A DNA stretch of 61,939 nt, filler included, from Jimgerdemannia flammicorona (lineage: Eukaryota), in the NCBI GenBank assembly GCA_003990765.1. It is 2 parts of 2 records of this genome, joined end to end, with 100 filler letters (N's around TTAATTAATTAA, not from the genome) between each part and the next. Parts side by side here need not be neighbours in the genome. Positions count along the whole stretch, not along the records: positions 1 to 30,938 come from RBNJ01000418.1; 1 more part is not named here. One strand, given 5' to 3'. The notes under the pieces were generated by a model. It was not told where the DNA came from. It ran no database searches and was given only the letters and a program-made list of their open reading frames with translations. Below, piece by piece: positions 10,591-59,500 of this stretch. Each line of letters opens with the position of its first letter. Position 1 is the first letter of the stretch. A program made the position numbers and the translations under genes.

Positions 10591-13147
10591 ATGCTTGTCC
10601 GGATTCGCTCTAAAGAAGGCACAGTTCGCGTCGAGGTGAACCCCACCGACGATGTCGTCGTGCTAGGTCAAAAGGTGCGCATTCCATCACCCATGCGACG
10701 AATCTAGGTCACCATATCTCACTCCTCTCTCCTTCCCACTGTCCCCATAGATTGCAGCAATTCTCAATATTGCTGATCCCGTCTCCATCATGATTTCTGA
10801 CCAGCCGCAGGTCGCCGGAGCGAGACGAATTTTTGACTTTGGGGGCAAATCACTGGCGTCTATAGGTGTCCAGTAAATTTCGGGGCCCCTTTCACTGTTG
10901 CTCTTGTTCACCTGGATCAATTCTCCCTTATCGCCGGTCGGTATGGGGAACCTTTCGTCATCATTCACACCCTTCCCAAATTTCCGAATCTTTATGCTTC
11001 ATCTAGGCACGGTGATCTCCTTTTCGTCACGATCGATACCTCGTCCTCCGAGGAGTTAGAATCCACACCAACACTACCGGCGGTCGCGATTGAGGATCAC
11101 ACGTCGATAATCTCGCCACCCATGGCACCGGTCATGGTGGACGCGGTTGACGAATACTTGGAGAAGCAATCTGGATTGATTAAGCGAGGGAGGGACCCTA
11201 AGTTGTGAGTGCAGCACGAGCCGTTTATAAATGTGGGTGGGATCACTAAGATTAGGCGAAATTACATGATCTAATATTAAACCTTAACTCCAGCTGCAAG
11301 CACACAGTCAACGGCATGTGCGACTACTGTATGCCCATGGAACCCTACGACTCACGCTATCTCGAACAGAATAAGATCAAGCACATGTCCTTCCACGCGT
11401 ACCTCCGGCAGCTGAACGCGGCGCAGAAAGGCAAGGATGCTCAAGCTGCGGGGTCCGCGAAAGCGGTTGCACCCCTCGAGGAACCAAACTACAAGGTCAA
11501 GGTGCCTTGCAAAGGTCGACACGCGCCGTGGCCCGAGGGAATCTGTACAAATTGTCAACCGAGCGCGGTTACGTTGCAAAGTCAGGTGAGAGCAGACGTT
11601 TGGATGAACGGGCATGATAGAATTAAAAAAAAAAAAAATTGGTACTTTAATGGCTGATTTGTTAATAATTCCCGATTTTCTGGTTGACATGCCATCATAG
11701 CCTTTCCGCTTGGTCGATTACATCGAATTCTCTGCTGCCTCCCTCATCGACAACTTCATTCACTACTGGCGTTCTACAGGCTGCCAACGTTTCGGCTACC
11801 TATATGGCCGCTACGAACCCTATACTGAGGTCCCTTTAGGTATCAAAGCCGTTGTCGAAGCGATCTACGAGCCTCCACAACAGACCGCCTTGGACGGTGT
11901 CGCTCTAGCTCCGCAATATTTTGGTAGCGAGGAAGAAGCTCGAATCGATGCCGTGGCACTCGCATGTGGCCTCCGTCGTGTCGGATGCATTTTTACTGAC
12001 CTCATCGATGACGGTACTTTGCGCGGCACTGTCGTCACGAAACGCCACGTCGACTCATACTTCCTCTCTTCACTCGAGTGTTGTTTTGCGGCCGAGATGC
12101 AGCGACGTCATCCCAATACTACGTCTACGTCTTACTCCACGTCCGGCAAGTTCGGATCCAAGTTCGTGACTTGTGTCTTGTCCGGGAATGAGGAGGGACA
12201 TGTTGATGTAGCGGGATATCAGGTATCGAACACATGCGTCGCTATGGTTGATGCGGGCATAGTCGAACCGAGCGTGAAGCCAAGCGTGATGAGAGTCAAG
12301 GAGGCGGTTGCAGGGGTGCGATATGTACCGGAGGTATTTTACAAATACAAGAATAAGTACGGGGTGAATGTGCAAGAGAGCGCAAAACCGACGTTCCCTG
12401 TAGATTATCTCCTTGTCAATGTGAGTATGCCATCTCGCTAACCTCCGCCCTCCTTTATTAACTAAATTGACAACTAATATTTCTTCTGACGACTTCTCTG
12501 ATACCCTACTCGCTCCAACCAGGTATCTCATGGCTTCCCACAAACTGCCAAGCCCCTTTTCACCGCGTCCACGCCTTTCCCGATTGAAAATCGCATAGGC
12601 CTCGACACTCAGGACTTCGACGCGCTGCGGCGTTATCTGACTGTCCCAGATTTTGCCAACGCCGTGTCGGATTTCCATCTGTTATGTTTTGTGATGGGTA
12701 TGGGCGTACTGGGCAAACTCGAGTTCGAGACGCTAGTGAGGGTAGCAATGAGCAAGGATCCGACAGAGGTAGCAAAGCTGGTGGAGTTGGGAGGATGGAA
12801 GACGCTGCAGATGGTGATGCAGGAGAGCGGTGAGTTAGTTTATATTTGGCTATGACATTGTGAGAGCCACCTGATTGGAAACCAACAAGAGGCCTGTTGT
12901 GTCTTGGTGGAGTACTAACCGTTCAACCTGAACCTTCTGGTTAGTCAAAGCAGCACCTCAATCGCACCTCGGTCATACGTCCGCCGTGTCATCACCTCCC
13001 ATGTCGCGTACGGGATCCACAGCTTCCTCGGCCGCCGGAAGCGCAGGCCGCGCCGCTCCCGAACTCATCAGCTGCCGGCATTGCACACTCTTGAATCCGG
13101 GCACGAATGTTAATTGCGAGATATGCTCGTTGCCACTGAGAGATTAA
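10591..13147 (+). CDS. NPL4: Nuclear protein localization protein 4 (Cdc48-Ufd1-Npl4 cofactor), multi-exon, with C-terminal NZF finger
   Basis: MLVRIRSKEG (UBX-like N-terminus), zf-NPL4 CKH...GMCDYCMPMEPYD...HMSFHAYLR and HAPWPEGICTNCQPSAVTL, MPN-like QRFGYLYGRY...AVVEAIYEPPQ, SKFVTCV, FPVDYLLV, FPIENR, DFHLL. C-terminus SCRHCTLLNPGTNVNCEICSLP, stop at 13145-13147. Confidence 0.96.
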
Positions 13148-13649
13148 GAGGGATACGAGTGGGGTAGAGGTACACCAGGTTTGATTGGGGAGAGTCGGGG
13201 AACGCATTGCTTGTATGCACATCAACTGCCTGCAAATATATAGATAAACTATGATTGTGAAAAATTGAACACCATTACGTGAGGTTGTTTCAACCAAGGG
13301 GCAATCGTATCATGGGGTTAGTTCGGAGGGAGCTGATGCAGCTGTCATCGTTGAACATTTCGGAATAAACTGCACTTTTTGTATCATAAATATATCTCAA
13401 CATATGACTGTATATCTAGTGGTATTATATTTTTTAAGAAGATATTGTTTAGCTTAAAAGTGAGGAATTCATCTTGAATTACCAGTTAATAGACACCAAA
13501 GTTATAATATAGCACACTCTTAATCTGAGAAGTATAGCAGATTTTTTTATTTTATTCTTTTGGTCTTCTTGACTTCTCAGAATTCATATATAGCAGAGTG
13601 TAGAGGTGGGTGAGTTCAAATTGTATCTGCTTATAGACTTACTAGTTTT

Positions 13650-14072
13650 TAGTACTCTTAAATAAATCAAATCAATTCAAATCAAATTGAATTGAGAGTT
13701 ATTCAAATTGAGTCAAATTGGGGGTTTTTCAATTTGAATAAAGTTTGAATCAAATTGAATTCAAATCAAATTGAGAGTTCAATTCAAATCCTATTTTTCA
13801 AAATATAATAACTTGACAAAATATGTCCAAATTTAATGATATTTAGCTTATTAGATTTCTCTTATATAGAGAAATCTAAAAAGCTAAAGACTATTAAATT
13901 TGGACATATTTTCATCAAGTTATTATATTTCAAAAAATAGAGTTTAAATTGAATCTTGAATCAAATTGAACCTTTGATTTAATTTAAATCAAATTGAATT
14001 AGACCTTTAATTTGATTAAATTAAATTAAATTTGAATCAAATTTGATTTGATTTGATTTATTGGGAGTACTA
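13650..14072. mobile_element. Foldback/MITE (whole-element palindrome), MULE-related
   Basis: Termini TAGTACTCT.../...GGGAGTACTA; near-perfect inverted symmetry centred near 13865 (TTCTCTTATATAGAGAA). The flanks CTAGTTTT and TTAGTTTC differ only by C/T transitions, consistent with a decayed 8-bp TSD. Confidence 0.8.
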
Positions 14073-14249
14073 TTAGTTTCATTACTTTAAATTGTTTTAA
14101 TCTAAGATTTATTCAATCTAGATACTAGATTATTTATATAAGTTTATTAGCTATATAGTGGCTAAGTTATGACTTTTTTTCTTATAATGAGTTATTTTTA
14201 CAATATATAGATTCTTATAATTACTAGTTTTTTATATATTATATAGAAT

Positions 14250-15241
14250 TAATACTCCCAAATAAATTGAATTGAGTTCAAATTGAATTGGGGGTCCAAT
14301 TCAAAATATTTGAATCAAATTGAGATCTTATTCAATTCAAAATTAGAAGTCAAAATTTAAAATATAATAACTTGATAAAAATATGTTTAAATTTGATATA
14401 TTTTAGCTTGTTGGATTCACCTTGATGAGGCAAATCCAGTATAATAAAGATCATTAGATTTGAACATGTTTTCATCATGTTATTGTATTTTAAATATTTA
14501 GGTTCAAAATTGAGATCTGATTTAATTTGAAATTGAAAATCAAAATTTAGAATATAATAACTTGATGAAAACATGTCCACATTTGATGTATTTTAGCTTA
14601 TTAGATTCACTTTAATAAGACAAATCCAGTGCAATAAATATCATTAAATTTGGACACATTTTCATCAGGTTATTAAATTTTAAAAATTTAGGTTTATGAA
14701 TTGAGGTCTGATTTGAAGTCAAACTTTGAAATATAATAACTTGATAAAAACATATCAAAATTTGATGTATTTTAGCTTTTTGGATTCACCTTAATAAGGC
14801 ATATCCAGTAAAACAAAGATCATTAAATTTGGACATATTTTTGTCATGATATTGAATTTCAAATATTTAGGTTCATGAATTGAGATCTGATTCAAAGTCA
14901 AACTTTGAAATACATACAATAATATGATGAAAACATATCCAAATTTGATGTATTTTAGCTTGTTATATTCACCTTGATAAAATGAATCCAGTTCAATAAA
15001 GATCATTAAATTTGGACATGTTTTTGTCATATTATTTAATTTCAAATATTTAGGTTTGTAAATTGAGATCTGATTTAAAGTCAAACTTTGAAATATAACA
15101 ACTTGACAAAACCATATCTAAATTGGATATATTTTCATTAAGTTATTGAATTTTAAAAAATTTAGGTTCAAATTGAAATTTAAATTGAATTGGACCTCAA
15201 TTCAAATTGATTCAAATCAAGTTGGGCCTTAATTTAAATTG
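14250..15241. repeat. Foldback-type element with ~4.5 tandem ~180-190-bp self-complementary units
   Basis: Starts TAATACTCCCAAATAAATTGAATT. The unit AAGTCAAACTTTGAAATATAATAACTTG recurs near 14347, 14537, 14716, 14895 and 15078, and each unit is an imperfect hairpin homologous to the core of the 13650 element. Confidence 0.8.
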
Positions 15242-15242
15242 A

Positions 15243-17420
15243 TATAGATAGAAAGTTAGTCACTAAAGTAATTATTATAAGACTGCAGAAGGTGGCCTAA
15301 CAGATATTAGGTACTGAGCAATAGAATTTTATTAGAGGTAGGCTAATTAGAGATAGGATAGTATAGATACACTATATTATTAAGAAGGTGAGAACTAGTA
15401 GACTAAATAGAAAGTTGGTTTTTTTGAATCAGAAGAAGGCTTATGATCATATTTGGCAAGTTTAGCTAGAGAAGGTATTAGAGAGAATTAGTATTTCTCA
15501 CTAGTTCTAAATATCAATAATTTATCTATTGAAGGGCAGCAGAGCAGTAATTCTGTATAATAACTATTATGAGGAGTTTCCCAGAGAGACTCACTGTTTT
15601 CTATTTTATATACTTTATTACTAGAGCTATTGATAAATAGAATTTACTATAAGATATTAAGACTTCTAATACTAGAGATGGTCTGAAAGATTGGGGTCTT
15701 CACAGATGATATAGTGGTCAGACTTGACTCTATTGCTAATATAGGTATACTAAAAGAGACTGTGAAGTAATATAAGAAGTACTCTGGGGTAAAACTCAAC
15801 TAGTATAAATATAAGATAATTGTACTAAGGAGGTAGTAATATTATTAAAACTATTATCTCTATAGGGAAAGTTATATATTATCTAAGTATTTTTCTATTA
15901 GTATATAGTTCAGTTCTACTCAAAGTATAGTAGAAAAAAAAGGTGGTAAAATGGTGGAATATCTTTTGGAGTTAAGAGAGATACTATATTTTTCTTATTA
16001 GGTAGATGGTAATTCTTAATATCTACTATTGCTAAAATTATATTTAGTATTTCTAATGAGTCAATTTAATCTAGATTGGATTTGGATTGATTCATATTAA
16101 ATCTTATCTGGATGGATTCAAATCAACTATTGTTTTAATTTCTAAATTAGACCATTAAATATTTATATCAATAACCTGATGAATAATTATCCAAATTTGA
16201 TGATCTTGGTATCATTTAAAAGTCCTTAATAAGACCTATCTAATGATATCAAGAATATTGAAATTGAATTATACATTGCTGAGTTATGAAGGAAAATGTC
16301 TGAATTGCCAATTTTGGAAATTATTCAATTTGCTAATTTTTGAAATTTTGTCAAATAGAATGTTTTCTATAATATCTCAGCAATGTATAATCCAATTTTA
16401 ATGTTCTTGGTATCATTAGAAAGGCCTTATTAAGGGCTTTCAAATTATACTAAGATTATCAAATTTGAATAATTATTCATCAAGTTATTGATGTAAAAAT
16501 TTAATTGTCTAATTTGAAAATCAAAATAATAGTTGATTTGAATTCCATCTGGATTAACTCATTCAGAGTACTAATTATATTATCTGGTATATCACTTGGA
16601 CTTTCTAGTCTAAGTGATAAAGAGATTGTTGAAGATAGCTAAGAACTGAATTTGGGCTGAGAGGAGGAGTTAGATAGGTTGGAAAATCTTAACAACTCTG
16701 GTAGATAGAAGAGATATAGATCTGGTAAACTTCTCAAAGCAGTTATACTGCCTTTAGGCTTAGTGGTTGAAGAGAGCTATTAAGCTGAGAGATAGAGAGT
16801 GAGTGTCTTTAATATAGAAAGTCTGAGAGGTGAGGTTCTTCTCTTAAGAATTCTCTGATAACTTACTATCTATAGTTGGCCTAAGAAGTAGTAAGTACTT
16901 ATAGTAAAAGAGATTCTAGTAGAGAGTGGTAGAAGGTGCTTACTATATTGATCTCTATTAGTAAGATATAAAAGAGAGGCCCAATAGGGGTTTAAAATAT
17001 AGAGATAGAACAGACTTCTATTAGATAGTTCTCTACTAGTAGATTTTGACATTAGTATAAAGATAGAGTATCAGTAGAGAGTAGGTCAGGATCTGTGGCC
17101 TTTGAGCTGACAGATAACTAGTATTGATAAGGCTTGGGACTGAGCTGGACTATAGTCTTAGAGTACTGAGATACAGTAGTAACTTTTTCTAAAATTCTAA
17201 GTAGTATAGTGATATATTTTAAGAAAGAATATTATATTGAACTTTCAGTCAGATCACTTAATAAATGATAGAGTTTTGAGTATAAAAAATATTTTAATAT
17301 AGAGCAAGAGAGAAAAATAGTATAGATATTCAAACATTAGTTAGATAAGTGTGAGGTTTTTGGTAACTTCTGAAAGAGAGTTGGGGACTAAAGATGTAGT
17401 AGTATAATGATAGAGATATC
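15243..17420 (+). mobile_element. Heavily decayed LINE ORF2 fragment (same L1/Tx1-like family as 42938 and 50590 copies)
   Basis: Residual DRKLVTKV..RLQKVA, LVFLNQKKAYD, DSLFSILYTLLLE, IGVFTDDIVV; colinear with 54290-55960; interrupted by a MITE. Confidence 0.8.
16045..16573. mobile_element. MITE made of two long TIRs of the MULE-like element at 21132
   Basis: Termini TAGTATTTCTAATGAG / CTCATTCAGAGTACTA; perfect 8-bp TSD ATTATATT (16037-16044 and 16574-16581). The left arm aligns with 21132-21440 and the right arm is its reverse complement. Confidence 0.88.
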
Positions 17421-17924
17421 TCTCTCTCTCTTATCCTTTGGATACTTAAAGAAATAAGGTATTACTTAGGAACTTAGTATATAATATATATTAAGAAGCC
17501 TTCAGTTTGAGGAAGTACTCACTTAAAAGTAGTTATAGCAGCAGTACCCTTCTTATCAACCTTGGTTATAAGAAACTTATTCTTTACTATATATAGACTG
17601 AATTCATCTTAAAATTCAGATTTAATAGATTTACTTAAGTTTTTATAATTTATATACTGATCTCGGTTCTGGTAGCAGTTAGCTAGACTTTTAGAGTTTA
17701 GTCAGAAACACTAGAGTTATTTAGATATTATTACTAAGACTCAGGAGAATGTGGGTATAGAGGGGAAACTTGATTTTTGTATCAAGAACTGAACTAAAAC
17801 TGCTTTATTTCAGATAAAAACTAAGGAATATTTATATAAGTTAGTCTATAATTTCTGACTAAGTATAAGTAACTAATTTAATAACTATAGTGAGATTTGG
17901 AATTATGACCTTTGTTAGATAGTT

Positions 17925-20900
17925 TGTGACAAAAAGTACTTTGTGATCAGGATCTCAATTATTAAGCAATAATAATTGCTATAGTAATAGTTACTATAAC
18001 ACCAATTACTAGAGATAAGCTAGATATCATTTTTTGCATCATTTATATTGTTTATTATATTTATTATTTATATGTTATGCTTGATCATAACATCATTACT
18101 GGGTTATGTAATTGCTCATCATATGTCACATCTTGTTTGTTCATTCTATTATATCTTTTTCCTCTTAAAAATCAATATCCTCATTAATTCAGAAGTTGAG
18201 AACCAAGGGAGAGAAAGGTGGGAAATTCTTCTCAATATTGTTGTCTTCTTCTTCTGTAACTAGAGGGGTGGTTGCTGATAGCTCAATGTCTAGAATGGAG
18301 AAGTCAATGAGATCTATAAATGATTCTTGAATTGGTATAGGTATTGAGATAGAGGTTCTCCATCTAATACAGTTGGGATTATCCAAGTAGAGTTCTTGAT
18401 TCTCATATCTAGAGATATCTATTTAGATGGACAGTCCTTCAAAAAGATCAGAGAGACCTTAGAGCCATTGGTTTAGGTTATCATTCAAAAGAGAGCTCTA
18501 GTGGAGTTTGATATCAGTGAACTTGAGGGTAATCCAGAAGTTGGCCTCTTAAATTACTTTGATCTTCAGCTCATCAACCTCAGAGAAGCAGAGATTCTGG
18601 AAGTTCTTCAGTTGTATATAGTTAAGATTGAGAATTGTAAAGAATATATAGTACATAATTTGGTAGACTTTCTTGACTAGTCTTTGCTTATACCTATCTA
18701 GGTTGGTCCAGTCTGAGATCTGGTCAGTGGGTAGGCCATTTACATATTAAAGGAGTTGATGACTAATTTCATATTCATGTCAGATTTCTAGGTGGCTAAT
18801 AGTAAGGTAGGCCCTTTTTATGAGTTTACAGTAGTTAAGAACATACTATCCTAGGTTCTAGCTAGAGAGGTTAAGGGCCTCAGAGTGACAGTTCCTTCCT
18901 TGGATGACAATCTAGATATGTCCAAAGAGATAGTCAATCTAGCTTGAGAGAGACTGGCTATAGTGGGTAGTTTGGTGGTAGGTAGCAGACATTCTTGTCT
19001 TATCTTTTCTTTATAGAGAGGAGAGAGAGATGAGAGTTGTAGTATATTCTTATCTTGAGTATTTATACTTATTCATCTGTCTGGTATAACCTAGTAACTT
19101 CAATTTAATTATACTTTCTAGTAGAATGTGTGATCAGTTGTTGTGAGTAGAGCATATACTGGTTATATGAGAAAATTCTGATTTCAAAGCTATTATCTCT
19201 TGTAGTTGTGGTTATATAGAGTTGGCAGATTTTGTTCCTCTTTTTTTTTTATCTTATTGGCACATTTGTGAGGACTGGTCATCCTTGTCTAGGGCAAGGG
19301 CTCTCATTATTATGGCTGGGAATTTGAATCTCTTAGAAATAATATTTCTTGTAATCTGAGGTAATTTCTAGTAATAATATTTATTATGTAGATAATTTTG
19401 ATATTGTTGGCTTTCTTAAACTCTATATGAAGCATTCATCATCATTCAGTAGAGATGATACAAATGATATGAAATGAAATTATTCAAATACATTTTGCTA
19501 TACCTTACAGAGTTATTCTTTATCAGAGTATCTTTTTATTGATTAATTATAGTGTTTCTTTTTCTATAAGTTTGGTATTATATTCTAGATAAATATATAT
19601 ATAATGTCTTCTTTCTTTACTATATACTCTAAGTTTTTAAAGCTACAGTTTCTTTCTCTGTTATGGAGTAAGTATTTCTATATAGTTCTAGAGAGCTTTA
19701 TGTGTATTCTCCAGAGCTTCTTCTTTTTTTCAGATAGTATTATAAGTGGGATAACTCTTCTATGATAAGGAAAAACTACTTAACTGTTTTGGTATATTTG
19801 CAGACCTTATGGTCAAATACTTCCTCAATTTCAAATTTCTTATGATCATTGATCCTAATTGGGAGTGGTGGTAGAACTATATACCTAGGGAATGAGTTTT
19901 TATAGTAGTCTATCAATTGGCTGATATGGAATACTAAATGAACTTGGATATTATAAGGAAGTTACAACTTATAGTTGACTTTACTGACTTTTTCCACAAT
20001 TTTGTATAGTTCAATTCTTCTAGTATAGAGTTTCTTAGCTAGTTATTATGCTAGAGTATCTGGGTAGAGGTGGTCTGTTTTAAGTATAACTATGTCACCA
20101 ATATTGTAGAAGACTTCTCTTTACTTCAAGTTTGCATACTTGGTCTGATAGTCTTATGCTTCTATGAGAGCATCTCTTGTTATTTAGGTAAGATCAGAAA
20201 TAGTCTTGGTCAGATCTCAGGCTACTGAGACTGCTAATTTTGCAGTAGTGCTTAGAGTTCTTGGGTTTTGACCATGGTTCAGGAAGAATGAAGTCTTCTT
20301 TGTAGAGGTTTGCTGGCTATTATTATAAGTAAACTCAATATGGGCTAGGTACTTATCTCAATCATTCTGCTTATAATAGCAGAAGATACTAAGTATCTAC
20401 TTGAGGATCCTATTAATTCACTTGGTCTGACCATCAGTCTGGGAGTGATAGGCAGTAGAGAACTTCAGCTTGATTCCATAGAGAATAAAGAATACCTTCC
20501 AGAAGTTACTTGTAAACTTTATATCTTAGTCAGTTATAATAGTACTAGGCATACTATATAGTCTAAATACTTAGTTGAGAAAGATCTTGGCAATCTCTGG
20601 TACTATGACAGTGGTCTTGGTGGGTACAAAATAGGCTTGTTTGCTTAGGTGGTTTACAAATACTACAATGGTATCTCATCCTGCCTTAGTCTTGGGGAGC
20701 TGGATAATAAAGTCTATCACAATCTAATCTTAGTTATAACTTGGGATAGACAGGGGTTGCGGAAGTCCTATAGGTAGCTTGTTACTACTTTTGAACCTTT
20801 GGTATATCTTATATGAGGTCACAAAATCTTTGATATTCTTGGTTATCTTTAGCCAGTAGAACTCTCTTAAGAGGAGATTGTAGGTCTTTTCAAAACTAAA

Positions 20901-21131
20901 GTATCCTACTATAGAAGTATCATAGAGTTCCTGCATGATTTGAGCTATAAAATATCATTATTAAATATAACCACTCTGTCATAGTCCTTGTAAATAAGTC
21001 CATTATAGTAAGTGAATCTTTTAGACATTTGACTCATGGGTTCTGGGACCTCAGCCTCTGGGTCTTGGCAGAATTGAAGAAATTTCACCAGGAGGCTATT
21101 CTGTTGGTAACCATCCTTGATCATCTGGGTA
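17925..21131 (-). mobile_element. Ty3/Gypsy chromovirus-type fragment (family D): integrase, chromodomain and long 3' region/LTR
   Basis: Minus-strand remnants LYDTSIVGYFSFEKTYNLLLREFYW (IN zinc region), [40 protein letters not shown] (chromo). Putative LTR end ...TGTCACA at 17925. The 5' part is cut off by the MULE. Confidence 0.8.
18189..18992 (-). pseudogene. Accessory ORF (~267 codons) of unknown function in the 3'/LTR region of Gypsy family D
   Basis: ATG at 18992, about 70 nt downstream of GTATAAATAC. One reading frame runs to 18189 with only TAG/TAA/TGA stops explainable as CAG/CAA/CGA transitions; acidic C-terminal tail (TEEEDNNIE). Confidence 0.65.
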
Positions 21132-22414
21132 TAGTGCTCCTAATAAGTTAATTTAATCCAGATTGGATTCAGATTGATTCAGATTGATGGAATTCGAATC
21201 CTATCCAGATGGATTCAAATCAACCATTGTTTTGATTTCCAAATTAGATAATTAAATGTTTACATTAATAACTTGATAAATAATTATCCAAATTTAATGA
21301 TCTTGGTGTTATTTAAAAGCCCTCCATATGATCTATCTAATGATACTAAGAATATTGAAATCAGATTATGCATTACTGAGTTATGAAGAATAACATCTGA
21401 ATTACTGATTTTGAAAATTATTCAATTTGCCAATTTTGGAGATATCTTATAGCACCATCATTTTTTTCCCTTAACCCAATTTTTTTCATGACTGGATTTT
21501 TTTGATAGGATGATTTATGATTAATATTATCTAATGTAGATCATAGCTATTTTTGATAAAATATATATATATATATATATATCTTTTTTTTTTTTATCTT
21601 ACTCATCAAACTTGAATAAAATGGAGCAAATTTCTGACTCCAACATTTCCATTACCTCTGTCATTATTTTCTCTGCCATTTCACTCATCACCACTATCTC
21701 TGCTACTACTATTCCTGTTACTGCTATTCCTACTATCATTCATCAAAAAAGATATATTATTATTGATGAAGATAGTGATGATAATTATAATAAAGATAAT
21801 GACTTCTCTGTTACTACCATACTTATATCTACTGATCTTGCTGGTCCTGCTATTGTTATAGAACCCACTGACTCCATCAACCTCATCAACCTTGCTGACC
21901 TTAATAATCTTACTGATCTTACTGACCTCACTAATCTTACTGATCTTACTAATCTCACTAATCTCACTGATGCTACCACCTCTGTAAGTCTCAGTTATAG
22001 TGATGATCAGCTCAAGTTCTTTTAAGTAGAAAGGTCATTCACTATATCTATAGAGGAATTCGAAATAATATAGCTAGAAATTAACAATATTTGGATATAG
22101 TTTGGATAAACAAAGAAGTTTGTAAAAGATAAATAGATCAAGAACTATGATTGCTGGTTCAAGAAGCATAATTTCTCATCAACTAAAGACTGAAACACAC
22201 CAGTAGAAAAGAGAAGAAAGACTAGTATGCAGCTTTCAGATCTTTGTAAAGCCAGAATTATTATAATCTATAAGGATGACAAAGTAACTATTCACAAAAC
22301 TAAGAATAGCCCAGACTATTCTCATAATCTCAATACTAGTGATATTTGAAAGATGCCAAGCATAGTCAGAAATTTTGTCAAAATAGAGGTTAAAAAGAGA
22401 TACTGTATATCAGT
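21132..22414 (+). mobile_element. MULE/Mutator-like DNA transposon, left TIR plus 5' part of transposase (pseudogene)
   Basis: TIR TAGTGCTCCTAATAAG... (~300 bp, shared with the MITE at 16045). ORF remnant YDCWFKKH...KRRKT...LCKARIII...PDYSH resembles the FAR1/WRKY-GCM-type DNA-binding region of MULE transposases. Interrupted by Gypsy A. Confidence 0.65.
21864..21972 (+). repeat. 9-bp coding minisatellite (TDL/TNL)n inside MULE ORF
   Basis: About 11 degenerate ACTGATCTT-type units. Confidence 0.8.
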
Positions 22415-24487
22415 TGTAAGCGCATAACCTCCAAGCCATCGAAATTACACATTACCCTCTGAACAAGCCACTGAAATCACATATGACCTCTGAACAAATC
22501 TGGAAATCACCTGCTTGATCACGAAGCTGAGTCAAACTGAAGTTATAGTGCACAAAGCTGAGTCAATACGAAGTCACAGAATACAAGATTCACACAAACA
22601 GAATCTTACCAATCAGGACCAAATATATATATACTGAGCACTGAGATGCATCAAATCAGAGAACCAAAACAAACAATAACCACAACTCCCAAACACATAA
22701 ACATGACCACCGAGATCTATATCTGTATCTGCACTGACATTTGGAATGCTATTGTCAACCGAGCTACACCCCCTCTACCCCTCATAAATATCCATAGCCT
22801 AGTACCCCTCTACTTCGTGGAAGCCTGATGGAATACTCTGAACATGCTTAGCGAGGCCCACTGAATCGGACAAATCTCAAGCTACTACCAGATTGGCTGC
22901 CTCCTGGAAGACATAATTGAATACCACCATGATATAGACATTATCCAGATGTCTCAACACCAGAAGCTCATCACCTGCAAACATTGAGAACTTTTCTACA
23001 AGTATAGCACCATTATTCCCCACCTCCAAGTTACCATAGCCAAAATGATTGCTACCCTATCTTATAGTCAAATTGATGATATGATACAAGAACTCAACCA
23101 CAAGTACCTCGAGTACATCGAAACCACAGACAGAACCTTCCCACACCCCAATGATCATATCCTGCAAATGCCCCAAGTTGGATATGCCATAAAGGACATC
23201 TATGATATAATCCACTTCGATGAAGACAAAGTAGAAGATAATGATCTCTCTGACACTGACATGATCTCTAGCCAAGGATCTCTGCTAACTCTAATCACAC
23301 TGCCAACCTTGCCGATGAACTTACAATAATTTATAACAGCTTATGAGACTTATTGGAATAATGACCACTGGTATGAATACTAACCTACATTCACCCCTGA
23401 TTACTTCAACTACAATGAAGAGACTGGAGAACACAACCTGTACCTCCAGACAACCCTCGAGATTGAACCAACCACTCCACCACCTAAGTATGAGTGACAT
23501 GAACTATAGCCACCAGCTTACTACAACCCTGCAACTCATAGTGCTGTAATCTATAGAAGGTATGCAGATAGCGAAACCAATGAAAGCGAAGATGATACAC
23601 TCCTCCTTCACCCACCAACACCTTATCCAGTATATGAGACTGATGATGCCATCTTGTGGGATAGAGACGAAGTTCCAATATATTATTATCTCAGCAAACA
23701 AGGAGAAGTAATCTGCGAACCACTCTTCCTAGACAACTACATCATCAGAGATGATGTAATCAATAGTGATGTCATCAAGGACTATCCAGATAGTGCCTAA
23801 ACCTATAAATAGTCTAGCAGTCATAGTATAGTTAGATTAGCCTTGTAAGACGTGACTGTGAACTGACTCAGCAGTCAGACAATCTCTTGACATATCAGAT
23901 CACACTTGTACTATGTAACTGCATTCCGACTCAGCAAGGCACTTAGTGCTATATCCATATCTAGCATAGTCCAGATAGCCTCTTACTAGTATAAATACCC
24001 CCTCCCCCAGACCTCAGAATCTCAGACTTGAATACTTGAACAATCTGAACACAACTCCTGAGCACTTTCCCACAATATCCCTTTACACAACTACTCCTAG
24101 TATAGCAATATCATGAATAGCCAATAAGTCTATTTAATAACCCACAAACCACTCTTAAGTAAATCTGCTCCCTGTTAGATCCTACTCCTAACTCTGTCAC
24201 GAAATTTCCTAATTGGGTATTGTCTGTAGCAATACACCAATTCAACTAAGCTGGTCTTAGTTTCTTAAATCTCCTGAAATACAGAAAATCCTGAACATTC
24301 AGAACTAATCCGAAAAAGGACTTTGGTTGAGATGTCAACTCTATCTTGAAAGCAATAAGTGTAGAGGATATACTCCATATGAAATTGATCTTGACCATAA
24401 GAAAACAGTCTTTCAGAACATCCAGAACTTCTAGAAAAACCCTTCCAGAACTACGTAACAGTTACCCTAAAAAGCAACCCTCTTACA
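22415..24487 (+). repeat. 5' LTR of Gypsy A (2073 bp)
   Basis: TGTAAG...CTTACA ends. Both ends are confirmed by the second copy (56538-58054, minus strand). Followed by the PBS; TATA box near 23990. Confidence 0.88.
22703..23800 (+). pseudogene. Accessory ORF inside the U3 region of the Gypsy A LTR (~365 codons, one frameshift near 23280)
   Basis: TATATATA at ~22624, then AAACATG at 22703. ORFs 22646..22828 and 23045..23329 share a frame and are joined by three TGA (ex-CGA) stops. After the frameshift comes an acidic Tyr/Pro-rich tail with PPPKY and PPAY, ending at TAA 23798-23800. Confidence 0.7.
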
Positions 24488-24490
24488 ACT

Positions 24491-26434: not shown

Positions 26435-26841
26435 GACTTTGTCAAATTGAGACAAACTGCTAAGGCCCCAACTAAAGAAAGTCAAAAAGCAGCTGAATAT
26501 GACCTATATGTAGCTGAAGAAGCTACAGTTTCCAACCAAGAAGTCAAACAAGTCTACATAGGAATCAGCATCCAAATCCCTAAAGGATATGTTGGAAGAA
26601 TATGCTGTTGCAGCAGCCTAGCATTGAAAGGACTCTCAGTAGAAGGAGGAGTTATCAACGAAGATTATACAGGTGAAATCATTGTCCTCATTTGAAACCA
26701 CAGTTGGACACCCTTCAAGATCCCTATAGGTTTCTGTATTGCTCAGATTCTATTCGAAAAAATCAAGTCAACCCTGACAGTCAAGGAAGTCTCTAAACTA
26801 CTGCCCACCATCCGAGGATCCAAAGGATTTGGCTCATCAAA
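26435..26841 (+). pseudogene. dut: dUTPase domain of Gypsy A, between nucleocapsid and protease
   Basis: All five trimeric dUTPase motifs in order: AAEYDLY, GRICCCSSLA (ex-RSGLA), GGVINEDYTGEI, IAQIL, RGSKGFGSS. Confidence 0.9.
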
Positions 26842-30938: not shown

Positions 30939-31038
30939 NNNNNNNNNNNNNNNNNNNNNNNNNNNNNNNNNNNNNNNNNNNNTTAATTAATTAANNNNNN
31001 NNNNNNNNNNNNNNNNNNNNNNNNNNNNNNNNNNNNNN
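30939..31038. other. Artificial assembly spacer (N44-TTAATTAATTAA-N44)
   Basis: A 12-mer giving stops in all six frames sits at 30983-30994, centred in exactly 100 nt. Confidence 0.95.
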
Positions 31039-31064: not shown

Positions 31065-34000
31065 GGTACCTGGTAGGCCTCTCCCCCTCCTCAAGCCCCT
31101 GCCATGGCAGCCTGACAGCCAGACCCTGCATATGAGTCTCCTCCTCTTCCCTCAACACCTGTTGTTGTTCCACTATCTCCAATTTCGCCCTCTCTACCCT
31201 CCAATCCTCCACCCCAACAATAGTGAGCAAATCCACCCACTCCATTTGTAGTCTTCTCAGCCTGCTGGTAGCACACCTTGTGCGCCTCCTCCTCTGCCTC
31301 CCAGCCTCACTACCAGCCCCTCCCCAATAAACCCTCACAGCCTCTTTCAATCTCATCCAGAGGACAGTCACAGGCAGACCATTGCCCCACCAGATCAAAA
31401 CTTTTGCTTGAATGTCCTCCACCCACAATTTCCACAACCCCTTCTCAGCCAGCAGGGAGGAGTTAAGGCGCCAATGTCCAGGTCCATCTCCACTCCCCCC
31501 AAACTGCCCCTGCCCCAACAGTCCCCAGTGATCAGACCATGGGCACCACTCCACTCCCAATGTCTTCCAAACATCCGAACCCCAGCACTCTGCTGTCAGA
31601 ATCCAGTCAATCCTCATGCCCAAGCCATTCACCCAATGTGTGTAGACCCTGTCATCACCCCACCTTATTCTGCCCATATCTCTCAAGGAACTCAATGTCT
31701 CCACCTCCTCCCAAACATCCAGACCTCCACTTCTACCCCTGACATTCCTCCCTCCATCAGTTCTATCCAGACACTGATCCCGAACCATATTGAAGTCCCC
31801 ACCAAGAACATCGACCCCTTCCTCCAAGAGAATACCCTCCTCCAGCAGCCCCCTAATCCACACAGTCCTCTCACCCCTAACGGCAGGGCAGTAGCAAGAG
31901 CCCACCTTCACCGATTCCCACCCTGGTCGATGCCAATCTCTCCAGACCAAGCAATTGCCCCAGCTCCTGATACCCCCCAAGTCTCCTCTGCCCTTCCTCA
32001 CCAGAATCGCTACTTTTCCAAACCAAGCAGCAGCCCCACCCCATTCTCTAGTCCACTCTACCTGCTTGTCCTCATCCTCACACTGAACATCCTATAGTAA
32101 AAAGAGATCAGCCTCCAATCCCTTGAGCCAAGTAAAAATGTTCTTATGGCGCCCAGAGCCCCTTAACCCATTCACATTCAAGGAGAAAATGTTGGTTGTA
32201 CTGTTCATTAAGAATACTGATATATCGTGGTCCCATTCTCTACAAGTCCACATTCTGCTCCTCCTGCACTAAGTCCAAGTCATGTTCAGCAGCTAGTTCC
32301 CTCTCCCCAGCTTCCCATGCTGCCAACTCTCCAAGAAGTTCTACCATTGCCCCATCTTCATGCTCCTCAAAGTCCTCTCGATACTCCAGACAGGCCTCCT
32401 GCCAGAGCCTCAGACCATGACGTTCTGCCCAACAGTACATCGCCCATTCAACAGCAACCACCCCCAACTCTGTCTTCCTAACCTCATCAACCTCATAACC
32501 CTTCTCCTCCAGGAAAATTGCCAGAATTTCCAACTTCAGTGCCTCCAACATTCCATCACTGCGCAGAATATGTGCCCAATGCTCCTCAGGCATTGCCCAC
32601 AGGTTCACTTCCCCCAAAGCCTCTGCTGCAAGATTATCCATCACCTTGCACATCCACAACAAGTTTCCCACCTCTTTCCCTCCTGGAGTCCCCAGCCACC
32701 CTGCATCCAACATCATGGTATCCGCTCCTATACTGGCAGCCTCATCCCACTCCTCCTCAGAGACATCCACCAGCTCCTCCTCACCAACTGCCACCACCTG
32801 ACCCCCTTGCGCCACATCAGGAACCCCAAAGTGCACCTGCTGGGCCCCCTGCATCCATGTATCCTCCATCATCCCTCTCTTCCCCACCGGGCCCCTCCTG
32901 ATAAGTGGGGGGGGGGTGGCATCCAACTCCAGCTCCCACACTTTGAAGGTTCCATCAGCAAATGGGTCCTTGTCCAGCATCTTCCCAGCCTCTGCCTCCT
33001 TCACCTCTCCCTCCTCTCCTCCTTTATCTGCCCAGACACTGGCCTTTATGCCTCCAGACTCCCCAGCTCCAACTGACTTCTTCTCCACCCCTCCTGTCAT
33101 ACTGGCCAATAGCTCCCTCTGCCTCTGGCATCCCTGGGCCCACTCCCACTGCTTCCTGTACATATGGATACGCTTTCCACCCACAACCTCCAGATGTGTC
33201 AACTCCTCATATAGTTTCCATGCCTTCACCCTCCTCTCCACAGCACCACCCAACTCCTCCAGTGCCTCTAACAAGTCCTCCTCCTCCTCTTCACTCCCTT
33301 TCACCTTCAACACCTTGCAGATAACAGCCCCCCACATCAGCACGAAGGCCAGTCACTCATCTTCCCTGTGGCCTCCTTGCCCACTAGCCGAATCCTGACA
33401 TCGACATCACCTGTCCTGATAGTGGTCCTCTCCCACACCTGAAAGCCTATGTCCACCACATCACCATACTCTACCATCACCTCCTCCACTCTCTTCCTAG
33501 TCTCCTCCTTAGTCACTGTGGGCATCCCCCTCACTAGAAGCTGCACCACTCTGGGGTCCCACCTCAAGCACCACACCATGGGTACCACCATCTCTCCAAC
33601 CATAACTCCAGCCTTCAGGGCCTCATCCAGTGGGCCCACTTCCTCAAAACCCACCTCAACCCCCTCCAAGCCCTTCAAGAACTTCACCAAGGCCGCCCCC
33701 ACCACCTGCTTCGAAATCAGCCCCAGAACCATCCTCGCCATCACCGCCAAGCCCCGGAAGCACAAGGTGACCACAAACTCTGAAATCAACTTCTTGAGCA
33801 ATGGGGCCACCGCCAGCCCCATTACACCATCTGCCAGGTCCCTCTTCTGCATTGGGAACCCCTGCCCCCCCTGGCCATCAGCCATCACATCTCTTTTTTT
33901 CGCCTGATTCACCATCACGCCACCATCAGCAGTCCTGCCACTACCCCCAGCAGCAGCTCCACTTCCACCACCTCTCCCTGGCGAAGGCCCAGCTCCCATG

Positions 34001-34340
34001 GCAGCACCATCCTTCTGCTTCCCCTTCCCTCCTGCCTGACTACCGCAGGATCCTGCTGGCCAACCCCCAGTCCTCAGTATGTCCACAAAGCTCCTACCCT
34101 GCAGCCTTCCAGCCCCCCCACCAGTGCCACTTCCACTCCCCAAGCTGTCCTGCCCACCTGAGCCACCAAAGACCCCATCCCCAGTCCATACCCTCTCCTG
34201 ACATGCTGCCAGTTGAAGGCCCCAGGTATGCCTGACCTAGTACGCATATCGGCTTGCTTGCTGGTTGACATTTTCTTAATAGCTTTCTCCAATAAACGAC
34301 TTGAAAGTTTGTTGTAAAGTGTGTGTAATGTAAATTGTAG
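31065..34340 (-). mobile_element. L1/Tx1-like LINE, 5' half (5'UTR, ORF1, APE endonuclease of ORF2)
   Basis: ORF1 (33337..34143 and 32240..33343; RSFVDIL, EVGF). ORF2 begins NVNGLRG...ADLFLL and contains GSCYCP, LGGDFN, YTHW, RIDWIL, PWSDH, GPGHWRLNSSLL, EGERPTRY. The 5' end matches 50594 onward. Broken by a plus-strand poly(A) at 31039-31064. Confidence 0.92.
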
Positions 34341-43900: not shown

Positions 43901-44809
43901 GGATAGCCAAGGGGGCACACTGCATTGATATTCGCTGGTGAGGGGATGAGGGGGAGAGGGCTTGGGGCCCGGCGATGTGGAGATGGGATGGTATTCTTCT
44001 GGGAGGCATGCCTTTACTTGAGTTCAACATTAGTGATGGCATCAAATGCCAAAGGGGACTAGGCCAGGATCTGTAGCCTAGTGGTTGGCAAGGAGTTGGA
44101 ATTGGTGAGGAGTGGGACTGGCATGGGGTTGGGACCTGGAGTGCTGCAGTGAAAAATTGGATGCCACCAAAGTACTGGGTGGTCTGGTGGTGCGTGCTGA
44201 GGAGGAATGTGATGCTTAACTTCCACTCAGGACACCTTGTTGTAGGAGGCTGCTTTGACTGCGAGGAGTGCTATAATGTAGGGCAGGAAGGGGGATTTAT
44301 TCAGATGCCAGAATATTGGCTAGGGGAGTGTGAGGTGTTGGGAGACTTTTGGCAGGTCATTGGGGACCACTTGGGGGTAAGGCGTAGGGGTGATGATGTA
44401 TGGGGGAGGTGGGAGGACCTGAGGGATCGATTGATAGAAGGGGTAGGGGAGGAGTGGATTACTCTAGGCTGAGCATTGGCTATTTGGGTGGGGCTGGCTG
44501 GTCACTGGCTATTTGTATTTGAGGAGGAGAGGCGAGAGAGCTTGGGGAGCCGGTTATCACAGTGGCAGTGCCTTATGGAGGATACCTTGACAGGCTGGTG
44601 GCTTGGTTGGGGGCTGCAGGGGGGTCGGAGGTGCCACTTGGTGGTGAAAATCTGTGGTCAGAGTGGTGGGAGAGTTGGAGTTGTGGGTGAGAGGGTGGTC
44701 TTTATATGTGAAGAGGTGGGGAGCCCCCCGATGGGGATCGGATAGTGGGTGGGATATTGATATTGTATACTTATTCATAGACTGGTAATAAAGACAGAGT
44801 CCAAGGAAC

Positions 44810-44847
<38 letters not shown>

Positions 44848-56374: not shown

Positions 56375-56406
<32 letters not shown>
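50590..56406 (+). mobile_element. Near full-length (~5.8 kb) degenerate L1/Tx1-like LINE
   Basis: 5' end and ORF1 colinear with the 31065-34340 copy. ORF2 has APE (NINGL, PWSDH) and RT (PGEDGLP, NWRPI, FLDQEKAYD, QGDPLSP, FVDD); AATAAA and poly(A) at 56378-56406. Confidence 0.93.
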
Positions 56407-56411
<5 letters not shown>

Positions 56412-56537: not shown

Positions 56538-59500
56538 TGTAAGAGGGTTGCTTTTTAGGGTAACCATTATATAGTTCTGAAAGGGTTTTCTGGAAGTTCT
56601 GGATATTCTGGAAGACTATTTTCTTATGGTCAAGATCAATTTTGTATAGAGTATGTCCTCTACTTATTGATTTCAAGATCAGGTTGATGTCTCAACCAAA
56701 GTCCTTTTTCAGACTAGTTCTGGATGTTCAGGATTTTTCATATTTCAGGAAGTTCAAGAAACTAAGACCAGCTTAGTTGAATCAGCATATTACTGCAGAT
56801 GATATCCAATTAGAAAATTTCATGATGGGGTTAGGAATGAGATCTAATGGGGAGTAGATTTACTTAAAAGTGGTTTGTGGATTATTAAATAGGTTTATTT
56901 GCTATTTATAATATTGCTATACTAGGAGTAGTTGTGTAAAGAGATATTGTGAGAAAGTATTCAGGAGTGTTCTTGTATGTTCAAGTCTTGTTTGAGTCTC
57001 TGTATCTGTTCAAGTCTGAGATTCTGAGGTCTGAGAGAGGAGGTATTTATACTAGTGAGGGGCTATCTGAGCTATGCTAGATATGGATGTAGCACTTAGT
57101 GCCTTGCTGAGTTGGAATGTAGTCACATAGTACAAGTGTGATCTGATATATTAAGAGATCATCTGACTGCTGAGTCAGTTCACAGCTACATCATATAAGG
57201 CTAATCTAACTATACTATGACTGCTAAACTATTTATAGATCTAGATGCTGTCTGGATAGTCTTTGATGACATCACTATTGATGACATTATTGCTAGCAAA
57301 GTCTGAGCAGTTTTCTGACTTCTGATATCATCAGTTTCAAGATGTTGTCACTTCTATCTCTTGCAAGATTAAGGCTATCCTTGGTGGTAGTAGTTGTACA
57401 AGGATAACAGGTCTTGGTTCTCTTTTTTTTTAGCCTGCTAGTGCATTTGTGAGAACTGGCCATCCTTGTCTAGAGCAAGAGCTCCCAATGTCATGGCTGG
57501 AGGTTTGAATCTCTCAGAAATGATATTTTCTATAATCTAAGGCAATTTCTAGTAGTAATATCTGTCATGTGGATGGCTTGAGATTGGTTTTGATAATATC
57601 AGCTTTCTTGAGTTCAGATGAAGCATCCATCACTCTCCAACAGAGGTGACACAGATAGAGTAAATGGAGTTGTTCAAATGTATTTTACTTCTGCTAAGTA
57701 ATAAGGTCTTGTATAGTTGTGGTGTATCTTGGTCTTGAGTTTGATAAGTGTAGTTCATGAACTCTTGATGGATGAGATAGGATCTTTCTTGTCTCAGTTT
57801 GAGTTTGGTACTTTCAGTTTCCTTTTGTAATAATACAGTATACTAAACTAGTTATAGAGGTTCAGAGTCAGTCTTATAGTTATAGTACTTCTTCTGGTAT
57901 TTTTGTGTCTTGGCAGTAGGTTCTCATATTTGCTGGTATATTTTGTATAACCAGATGATCTCTTCAGTAACTTGTTTTATAGTCTCGCATATGGTTTCCA
58001 ATTGGTTCTAAGAATAATATGCAATTTTGGTGGCTTGGAGGTTGTATGCTTACAACTCTCCCCTTCTTAGCTTTTGACATTCTCGTCAGGGCCTTCTAAT
58101 TTTGTTCTAGTGTTGTTGTACCATTTGGATGATTTTTGTAGCTATGTTTGTTGAGGATTTGTTCAACTTCATACTCTTCTTGGTCATTGATAATGACAGG
58201 TACAGATGGTTCTATGGTTCAGTTCAGAAATGTGTCTCAGACCTTCTGGAGTAGTGGTCTGACATGGCTGTCAACTTTGGAAAAGTCTTCCTCAGTATTC
58301 TTGGGTTCTCCTTTAGATGGACAGATGGAGATAGCAAAGAGAGGGCATTTCTTAGCCAATTTCTTGAGCTGTAGCTTGTTGATGTAGGTGATCTTTGGTC
58401 CAGAATCACTAGAGCTGAGTGGGTCCTTTTTACCTTGCAGTTTGAAGTTGTGACATCCTTTCTTGATGGTTAGAGAATGGTTTACCCAATTAATCATGGG
58501 TTCTCTTGTTTCAACCATGGAGTCCCAAGGATGATTTCATTGTTAGGGAGTGGTACAATCTGGAGGGTAATATATACTTAGTAGTCACCAATTTGGAAGG
58601 GTAGGTTGTGGACTTTCTTGCTAATGATATATAAGGTTCTATCAGCTGTGACAACTGCTTGAGTTTGTTGTACCAGAGATGTGAAGACCTTGAGTCTGTT
58701 GGCTGTTTCTTCATTGATGAAGTTATCTGAGGTACTGCTGTCTATCATAATCTTGACAGGTGCTCAGTTGATAAAAGCTTGAAGTGTAAGTAGTTTGTCT
58801 GATCCAATAGTAGTGATTTCAGTTGTAGAAGCTTTCCTTCTGTTGGTTCTTCTTTGAGCCAGTTCATTGACACAAGAGAAGCAATCATCAATCATTTGGA
58901 AAGAGTACATTCCAATACTATGGGGGTATTGGCCACTTGGTATATATCCATCTTTAATTTTCTTATAGAATTGTTCTTCTTTATTTATGATAGGTTGGGC
59001 TGGGGCCTTGTTTGATGAGCCAAATCCTTTGGATCCTCAGATGGTGGGCAGTAGTTTAGGGACTTCCTTGACTGTCAAAGTTGACTTGACTTTCTCAAAT
59101 AGGATCTGGGTGATGCAGAAACCAATAAGGATCTTGAAGGGTATCCAACTATGGTTTCAGATGAGTACAATAATTTCACCTGTGTAATTCTTATCAATGA
59201 CTCCTCCTTCTACTGAGAGTCTTTTCAATGCTAGGCTGCCATGACAACATATCCTTCTGACATATCCTTCAGAGATTTGGATACTGATTCCTGTATAGAC
59301 TTGCTTAACTTCTCAATTGGAAACTATAGCTTCTTCAGCTACATACAGGTCATATCCAGCTGCTTTTGACTTCCTTTGATTGGGGCCTTAGCAGTTTGTC
59401 TTAACTTGATAAAGTCCAGTATTCTGGTGGTCAGGTTATTGAGGTGGTGCAGAGTAGTAACAGTTGCTCATGTTGTTGTTCAGGGTTTTCAGTTGGGGCA

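Follow-up and report, generated by a model that had tools for sequence, protein, structure and literature searches.

We analyzed a 61,939-nucleotide stretch, filler included, of the genome of the fungus Jimgerdemannia flammicorona (GenBank assembly GCA_003990765.1; here called the window) and examined a decayed open reading frame (ORF) next to the remnant of a Ty3/Gypsy retroelement, here named element D. This frame, the D ORF (18165..18992, minus strand), is probably a dead copy of a sense-strand accessory gene (additional ORF, aORF) carried by a fungal Ty3/Gypsy element. It was delimited by translation, by database relatives, by tblastn and by a match of its C terminus to an intact metagenomic copy. 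As judged from these comparisons, it is the remnant of a genuine protein-coding accessory gene belonging to a small, unnamed family (here named the D family).

A decayed reading frame with intact relatives

A first-pass annotation of the window had described a 267-codon minus-strand frame from 18992 to 18189. Translation reproduced this frame, with an ATG at 18992-18990, a premature TGA at 18191-18189 and 10 internal stops, and the core peptide quoted for it was located at 18779-18669 (-). Past the TGA, the window reads INEDIDF*, compared with INMDIDF* at the C terminus of the intact metagenomic copy (L001, see below). The ancestral D ORF thus probably ran eight codons further, to a stop at 18167-18165.

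When 1.84 billion cluster representatives were searched exhaustively with HMMER, using the read-through translation of the D ORF with X at the stops as the query, three matches were obtained, all of them intact proteins and all aligned to the D ORF frame. These are P0002 (E = 4.7e-60, 50% identity), P0003 (E = 1.5e-35) and P0004 (E = 4.6e-15). Including the cluster mates P0005 and P0006, the D family comprises five intact "hypothetical" proteins in three clusters with 27-50% identity, which come from short ENA and JGI contigs of environmental and ENA assemblies. The matches are intact ORFs of 214-342 amino acids, their alignment contains 32 invariant columns, and a start common to the members (MPALR, MPPIR or MSAT) with a conserved ATG is apparent. 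The relatives were placed on positions 18974-18168 of the window by tblastn, and 5 of the 10 stops of the D ORF align to W, Q or R residues that are invariant or nearly so among the intact relatives. A profile search for further members returned P0003 and P0002 only. No Pfam family was reported at E <= 1 for the six frames of 17400-19800 or for the proteins P0001 to P0006 (P0001 is related to a second ORF, described below). The best PDB sequence match to the D-family profile had an E value of 1.2. In the ESM Atlas, the best match of P0003 reached 0.88, which is under the bar of 0.9, and P0001 was without a usable match.

Locus scans with the D family revealed a single locus in metagenome contigs, L001, and none in genome contigs; viral contigs yielded none for the D family or for the family of the second ORF. 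L001 is a contig of 1,535 nt with 47% GC and carries an intact 291-codon ORF at 376-1251. Its sense frame contains one terminal stop in 292 codons, whereas the five other frames contain 6-22 stops. Comparison of L001 with the D ORF of the window showed 38/33/54 transversions and 57/34/79 transitions at codon positions 1/2/3, i.e., an excess of differences at third positions. The window copy differs predominantly by C>T (79) and G>A (53). A TATA[AT]A[AT] motif is located 80 nt upstream of the ATG of L001 and is the sole such motif in the 1,535 nt. In the window, a TATA-like motif (GTATAAATAC, 19059..19068, minus strand) precedes the ATG at 18992, as the first-pass annotation had stated, with TATAAAT 75 nt upstream of the start codon; it is a putative promoter of the aORF or of a long terminal repeat (LTR).

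The D ORF frame contains 11 stops in 268 codons, compared with 15-30 in four other frames, and the flank at 17000-18188 contains 32-40 stops per ~396 codons in every frame. The stop density of the D ORF frame equals that of the integrase frame of element D (24/454). Since the antisense frames are almost equally open, both for the D ORF (14/268, and 9/223 across 18330-19000) and for the integrase (25/454), openness hints at former coding and gives no strand. The coding strand is instead provided by the homologues and by L001, in which the sense frame alone is open. The earlier remark that the D ORF has only transition-type stops is true and uninformative, because any stop codon is one transition away from a sense codon. 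An open frame arisen by chance in decayed, AT-rich DNA, or a true gene on the opposite strand, would fit the nearly open antisense frame (14/268 stops). Both versions are refuted by the three database relatives, which reach E = 4.7e-60 and all align to the minus-strand frame, and by the frames of L001, with a fully open sense frame and 6-22 stops in the antisense frames; we give this explanation practically no credence.

Element D and its conserved 3' segment

By its placement and composition, the D ORF is part of a Gypsy element: it lies in sense downstream of pol, and base composition, loss of CpG and a conserved 3' segment (the C region) agree with this assignment. The pol remnant of element D (19701..21143, minus strand) comprises the integrase zinc-binding domain, the catalytic core and an SH3 domain, as recognized by Pfam (Integrase_H2C2, 6.7e-10; SH3_Tf2-1, 6.9e-12) and by pol comparison. 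On the minus strand from 23000 to 17000, Pfam found nothing beyond the integrase zinc-binding and Tf2-type SH3 domains. The "family D chromodomain" of the first-pass annotation was thus not confirmed by Pfam, whereas the H2C2 and SH3 domains upstream of the D ORF were. The integrases of element D and of Gypsy A, a second family in the window, are 37.5% identical over 384 amino acids. The 5' part of element D is missing beyond ~21139, where it gives way to a repeat (21132-21443) that is a copy of 16045-16346. The full repeat, at 16045-16554, is a foldback, miniature inverted-repeat transposable element (MITE)-like sequence with arms at 16116-16320 and 16339-16543 that are 83% complementary. The half copy at 21132-21443 sits exactly at the pol truncation, and the two copies bracket the D fragment.

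The D ORF lies on the pol strand and shares the A>T, C>G skew of pol; downstream, it follows the integrase SH3 domain at a distance of ~1 kb and the C region at a distance of 200 nt. The C region of element D (19194..19499, minus strand) is 306 nt long with an A-run at its end (AAAAAAAAAAGAGGAAC). It shows 72% nucleotide identity (z = 70) to 57689-57376, a C region copy in the Gypsy A copy A(-) (57376..57689, minus strand) that was identified by nucleotide similarity to the one in element D. Differences between the two C regions are mostly transitions, and tblastx scores are alike in several frames on both strands. Scans of the window for tRNA genes and Rfam families, carried out because the C region contains a T-arm-like string, gave no match. 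The last ~90 nt of the C region are also present in L001 at 16-103 (z = 16), where the ATG follows 273 nt further on. The layout of C region, about 200-270 nt and ORF thus recurs in L001, an independent, non-mutated sequence. With this matching layout behind the C region and the intact relatives, the first-pass view of the D frame as a retroelement-associated accessory gene was borne out. The contrast of 72% identity in the C region with 37.5% in the integrase suggests either that a cis element is conserved or that the families have exchanged 3' modules, as far as these sequence comparisons go.

We also assessed how the copy in the window decayed. The observed/expected ratio of CpG is 0.0 in the D ORF and 0.02 in the integrase, compared with about 1.0-1.1 in the tested host-gene stretches; across element D and the Gypsy A copies A(+) and A(-), it is 0.0-0.12, and in the second ORF, 0.31. 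Between the two Gypsy A copies, 372 of 409 substitutions are transitions. The classical indices of repeat-induced point mutation (RIP) are not reached, with (CpA+TpG)/(ApC+GpT) at 1.15 in the D ORF, and we therefore refer to the damage as transition hypermutation with complete CpG loss. Judging by this pattern, the D ORF copy is disabled by C->T/G->A hypermutation that also stripped CpG from the whole element.

A second accessory ORF at Gypsy A

The first-pass annotation had compared the D ORF with an ORF of Gypsy A, here called the partner ORF (22703..23800, plus strand), a 365-codon frame with seven internal stops. The peptides quoted for it lie at 22880-23083 (+) inside this frame. Its status as a real gene was confirmed by P0001, an intact 247-amino-acid protein from a 998-nt ENA contig, which is 60% identical (151/250) to the C-terminal two thirds of the partner ORF, has Q at four of its stops and has the same C terminus. 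P0001 lacks the N-terminal part that bears the proposed similarity to the D family. A profile search for members of the partner family returned P0001 only.

The annotation had called the partner ORF an LTR ORF. The 5' LTR of Gypsy A(+) (23751..24488, plus strand) has TGTAA...TTACA ends and is followed by a primer-binding-site-like sequence (TGGTAGCAGCAG); its similarity to the 3' LTR of A(-) (57290-56537) begins at 23751/57290. Only the last ~15 codons (~45 nt) of the partner ORF are inside the A LTR, and its stop is located 3 nt before the LTR TATAAAT at 23804. The label does not hold, as the ORF is internal and overlaps the LTR start by ~15 codons only. For the same reason, the proposed placement in the 3'/U3 region was right about the overlap and wrong in that the partner ORF is otherwise internal. 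The ATG of the partner ORF is preceded by a TATA-like motif at a distance of 79 nt.

The last 19 codons of the partner ORF were also found at the start of the A(-) 3' LTR (57244..57300, minus strand) by tblastn with residues 229-247 of P0001 and by a hidden Markov model (HMM) search (10.2 bits). The remainder of the ORF is absent from A(-), with the C region in its place, and the partner copy is without a C region. Since A(-) combines a C region like that of element D with an ORF tail and LTR like those of the partner copy, these 3' ends are mosaics. The likeness of A(-) to A(+) ends at 58126, inside the chromodomain, and past that break (57988-58126, minus strand) A(-) contains a 74-nt stretch like 22412-22485 (+), which shortly precedes the partner ORF. 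A(-) thus looks chimeric in its 3' part.

Relationship between the two ORFs

According to the first-pass annotation, both ORFs belong to one old accessory-gene family. That they derive from one old accessory gene, kept in Gypsy lineages now 37.5% identical in integrase, is a possibility that we take seriously while leaning slightly away from it. When 672 six-frame segments of the window were scanned with the D-family HMM, the best non-self match was the partner ORF frame (5.6 bits), over 124 colinear columns starting near both N termini; the next matches reached 4.1 and 3.7 bits over 24 columns. Reciprocally, a phmmer search with the first 140 residues of the partner ORF ranked the D frame first and second among non-self matches (3.0 and 2.6 bits; next, 2.5 and 2.4). 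Here phmmer was used because a scan with the partner-family HMM was uninformative, hmmbuild having dropped the N-terminal 113 columns, which are present in the window copy only. The D-family HMM score of the partner was attained by 11 of 1,000 shuffles, and with the five intact D-family proteins, 5, 8, 1, 6 and 6 of 200 shuffles attained the real score. Moreover, hhalign (P = 0.034), HMMER and most pairwise alignments choose one colinear region, and both ORFs lie in sense downstream of pol, with a TATA motif 75-79 nt upstream of the ATG and acidic tails. The tails noted in the first-pass annotation were confirmed, with aspartate plus glutamate making up 0.17 (D ORF) and 0.23 (partner ORF) of the last 60 residues.

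Against common ancestry stand the direct comparisons. The hhalign profile-profile match on which the proposal was to be judged had a probability of 1.5% (P = 0.034), with very shallow profiles. Smith-Waterman alignment gave z = 1.6 for the window copies (20 of 300 shuffles attain it) and -0.9 to 1.25 for ten pairs including intact proteins. The annotation was right in seeing no nucleotide similarity between the two ORFs; none was detected by blastn, by tblastx or in a purine/pyrimidine alphabet, there was no tblastx match at E <= 0.01, and no tblastn match at E <= 10 fell on the locus of the other ORF in either direction. The rank tests were decided by margins of about 1.5 bits at most. Of the invariant D-family columns, the partner has the identical residue at 12 of 38, hardly a higher share than the 23 of 81 variable columns at which it matches any member, and a tail motif shared by P0004 and P0001 (RDDVIDD) is non-significant, as 127 of 500 composition-preserving shuffles attain it. 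In addition, the intact P0001 is without the N-terminal part carrying the proposed similarity, and the hypothesis was drawn from the same sequences, so the tests are not a priori; nor are they mutually independent. A weak alignment (p about 0.06) sets a remnant of the partner tail upstream of the D ORF, which, if real, would put the two genes in adjacent slots rather than in one and the same. Folds were not decisive, as the AlphaFold2 models of the two families have a low mean pLDDT (the confidence score), namely 34.1 (D family) and 31.0 (partner family); in the Atlas, the model of P0001 reaches a pLDDT of 0.39.

It may just as well be that two unrelated accessory genes were independently acquired in a recombination-prone stretch between pol and the LTR promoter, with an even chance that their resemblance reflects composition and helical periodicity. 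No standard test gave significant similarity, which favors this explanation, as do the mosaic 3' regions (in A(-), a C region as in element D with an ORF tail and LTR as in the partner copy) and the difference between C region (72%) and integrase (37.5%) identity, which suggests exchange of 3' modules. Harder to accommodate are the reciprocal best ranks, the long colinear alignment and the equal spacing of TATA and ATG. The single-family proposal is thus backed by the reciprocal ranks and the shuffle test (11/1,000) and opposed by the hhalign probability of 1.5% and the non-significant pairwise scores. The "same spacing" alignment by eye was reproduced by HMMER and hhalign and is statistically insecure. 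On these comparisons, kinship of the D ORF and the partner ORF is weakly suggested, not demonstrated, and we rate it as somewhat doubtful.

Position of the D ORF relative to the LTR

Since element D is 5'-truncated and single-copy in the window, its LTR could not be delimited. The D ORF might be inside the LTR of its element, downstream of the LTR TATA box, so that every LTR, solo LTRs included, would be a complete TATA-ORF unit. We consider this arrangement possible, if somewhat less likely than not. In its favor, the start of the Gypsy A LTR can be aligned colinearly with the 145 nt that separate the C region from the D ORF, which would place the start of the D LTR at ~19113, the spacing from TG to TATA is 46 nt in both (TATAATTAA... 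at ~19113 and TGTAATCAA... at 23755), and CCAGACAG...TATAAATA is common to the D and A sequences. The alignment is marginal, its score being attained by 57 of 1,000 and 31 of 500 shuffles, another placement scores nearly equally, and MAFFT pairs the TATA boxes differently. No second D LTR is present in the window. The L001 ORF is flanked by a 33-nt direct repeat (170-202 and 1481-1513; 27/33 identical, 1,311 nt apart; 0 of 500 shuffles attain its score), which fits an internal cassette equally well. No such direct repeat was found flanking the D ORF in the window.

Predicted product and expression

The five intact D-family proteins and the L001 ORF reach a maximum 19-residue Kyte-Doolittle value of 0.57-0.66 and contain no hydrophobic segment. 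Lacking a membrane segment, they are not envelope-like and differ in this from env-like aORFs. Helices are predicted with low confidence by AlphaFold2 in the N-terminal half of the D-family proteins. Their acidic tail harbors short hydrophobic motifs (DLIxFS), with P-[LMW]-[VI]-L-N-F near or at the end, and no recognizable catalytic or nucleic-acid-binding motif was found in the protein. In our model, the aORF would be transcribed from its own candidate promoter, whose TATA motif precedes the ATG by 75-80 nt in the two DNA copies available, as a putative subgenomic mRNA that would have its 3' end in common with the element RNA. In the predicted product, an N-terminal helical domain (~190 residues) would be followed by an acidic tail that is probably disordered. 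By analogy to retroviral regulatory proteins, it may serve the element in an accessory or adaptor function, being neither an enzyme nor an envelope protein. Such a role is the most likely one for the D-family product, and it is pure inference.

Several points weigh against interpreting the D ORF as the accessory gene of a Gypsy element. Genomic context outside the window is known for one of the five related proteins (L001), and the D family is very rare, with three clusters per 1.84 billion representatives. This rarity could also fit a lineage-restricted captured gene. With element D truncated and single-copy, its LTR could not be delimited, as described above. Transcription of the aORF is predicted from DNA, and the TATA argument comes from two DNA copies, one of them AT-rich. 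Finally, the structure model has a pLDDT of 34, so that the domain description is weak and the function purely conjectural.

Other features of the window

The window contains both GC-rich (50-57%) genic stretches and blocks of decayed retroelements that are AT-rich. The host gene at 11701-12441 was recognized by its match to Npl4; the six top-scoring PDB chains reach 256-270 bits, above the chains named "Nuclear protein localization protein 4 homolog" (about 195 bits). The top chains are Npl4 of Chaetomium and yeast and the weaker ones human, in line with a fungal genome. At 13639-15135, an AT-rich array (22-34% GC) of tandem repeats, each ~180-190 nt long, separates the host genes from the retroelement block. 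In two different Gypsy elements, a dUTPase domain was identified between gag and protease (26459-26839 and 47348-47728, both plus strand; Pfam, 1e-30 and 1.5e-26).

Furthermore, there are repeated blocks that are rich in GC (47-57%) and show an extreme GC skew, reaching +/-0.5. One pair, 31456-34340 and 50592-53412, is inverted and 66% identical, and a second GC-rich pair, 42940-44846 and 54508-56410, is direct and 77% identical. A third Gypsy element is truncated at ~50570 by one of the GC-rich repeated blocks. Just past the 3' end of Gypsy A(+), a long T run is followed by N runs at 30939-30982 and 30995-31038, which were read as assembly gaps; the 3' LTR of this copy is accordingly unassembled.

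Discussion

Accessory genes of LTR elements are well known from retroviruses. Mouse mammary tumor virus (MMTV) sag and human/simian immunodeficiency virus (HIV/SIV) nef are retroviral ORFs that overlap or lie in U3, nef overlapping both the polypurine tract and U3. Like sag and nef, the D ORF is an accessory ORF located 3' in a retroelement, maybe inside the LTR. The partner ORF is similar to nef in that it reaches ~45 nt into the LTR and ends 3 nt before the TATA box. Unlike sag and nef, to which they have no sequence relation, the D and partner ORFs show no evidence of splicing.

In plant LTR retrotransposons, additional ORFs have been described between pol and the 3' LTR, in sense or antisense, the sense ones being termed aORF-3S or "env-like" (PMC7264820). 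Plant aORF-3S genes lie on the gag-pol strand downstream of pol, are conserved among copies and show no similarity to other proteins (PMC7264820), as is the case for the D ORF. The plant ORFs are "env-like" by virtue of transmembrane segments (PMC7264820), which the D family does not have. The D ORF also differs from them in its fungal host, in its Tf2/chromovirus-type element and in having a candidate promoter of its own rather than splicing.

Among fungi, Boty/BcGypsy1 of Botrytis cinerea carries an antisense additional gene, brtn, between pol and the 3' LTR (PMC7264820, PMC8365987), and further unnamed extra ORFs are annotated in other Botrytis Gypsy elements (PMC8365987). In being an additional gene next to pol in a Ty3/Gypsy element of a fungus, brtn resembles the D ORF; it is antisense, whereas the D ORF is sense, and the two are likened by description. 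In bdelloid rotifers, LTR retrotransposons contain captured ORF3 genes, and additional ORFs occur across diverse retroelement types (PMC5408684). This sharing pattern is the one proposed in the first-pass annotation for the two ORFs of the window, in another host kingdom and again likened by description. A term search in a survey of fungal LTR elements returned no mention of additional ORFs (PMC3248453). In the literature covered, which excluded subscription journals and Repbase, no sense aORF family was found for fungal Gypsy elements.

A more far-reaching scenario, which we regard as speculative and rather unlikely, is that Gypsy elements of the chromovirus type in fungi harbor an ancient gene for a retrovirus-like regulator, transcribed from a TATA promoter of its own. 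D-type and partner-type genes would then be diverged descendants, possibly tandem paralogues flanking the LTR TATA. The D type would lie inside the LTR, and each LTR, solo LTRs included, would autonomously express a protein of benefit to the element, e.g., against genome defense.

Plant aORFs are described and not understood, and the fungal examples found in the literature covered are the antisense brtn of Boty and the unnamed ORFs of Botrytis Gypsy elements. With the D family, a new and very rare group of proteins would be linked to a Gypsy element of a fungus; its start codon is conserved, and the gene has its own candidate promoter. It may represent a retroelement-encoded regulator in fungi that use hypermutation as a genome defense. 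If the D ORF and the partner ORF were indeed homologous, the gene would be older than the divergence of Gypsy lineages whose integrases are now 37% identical, implying a lasting function in the life cycle of the element.

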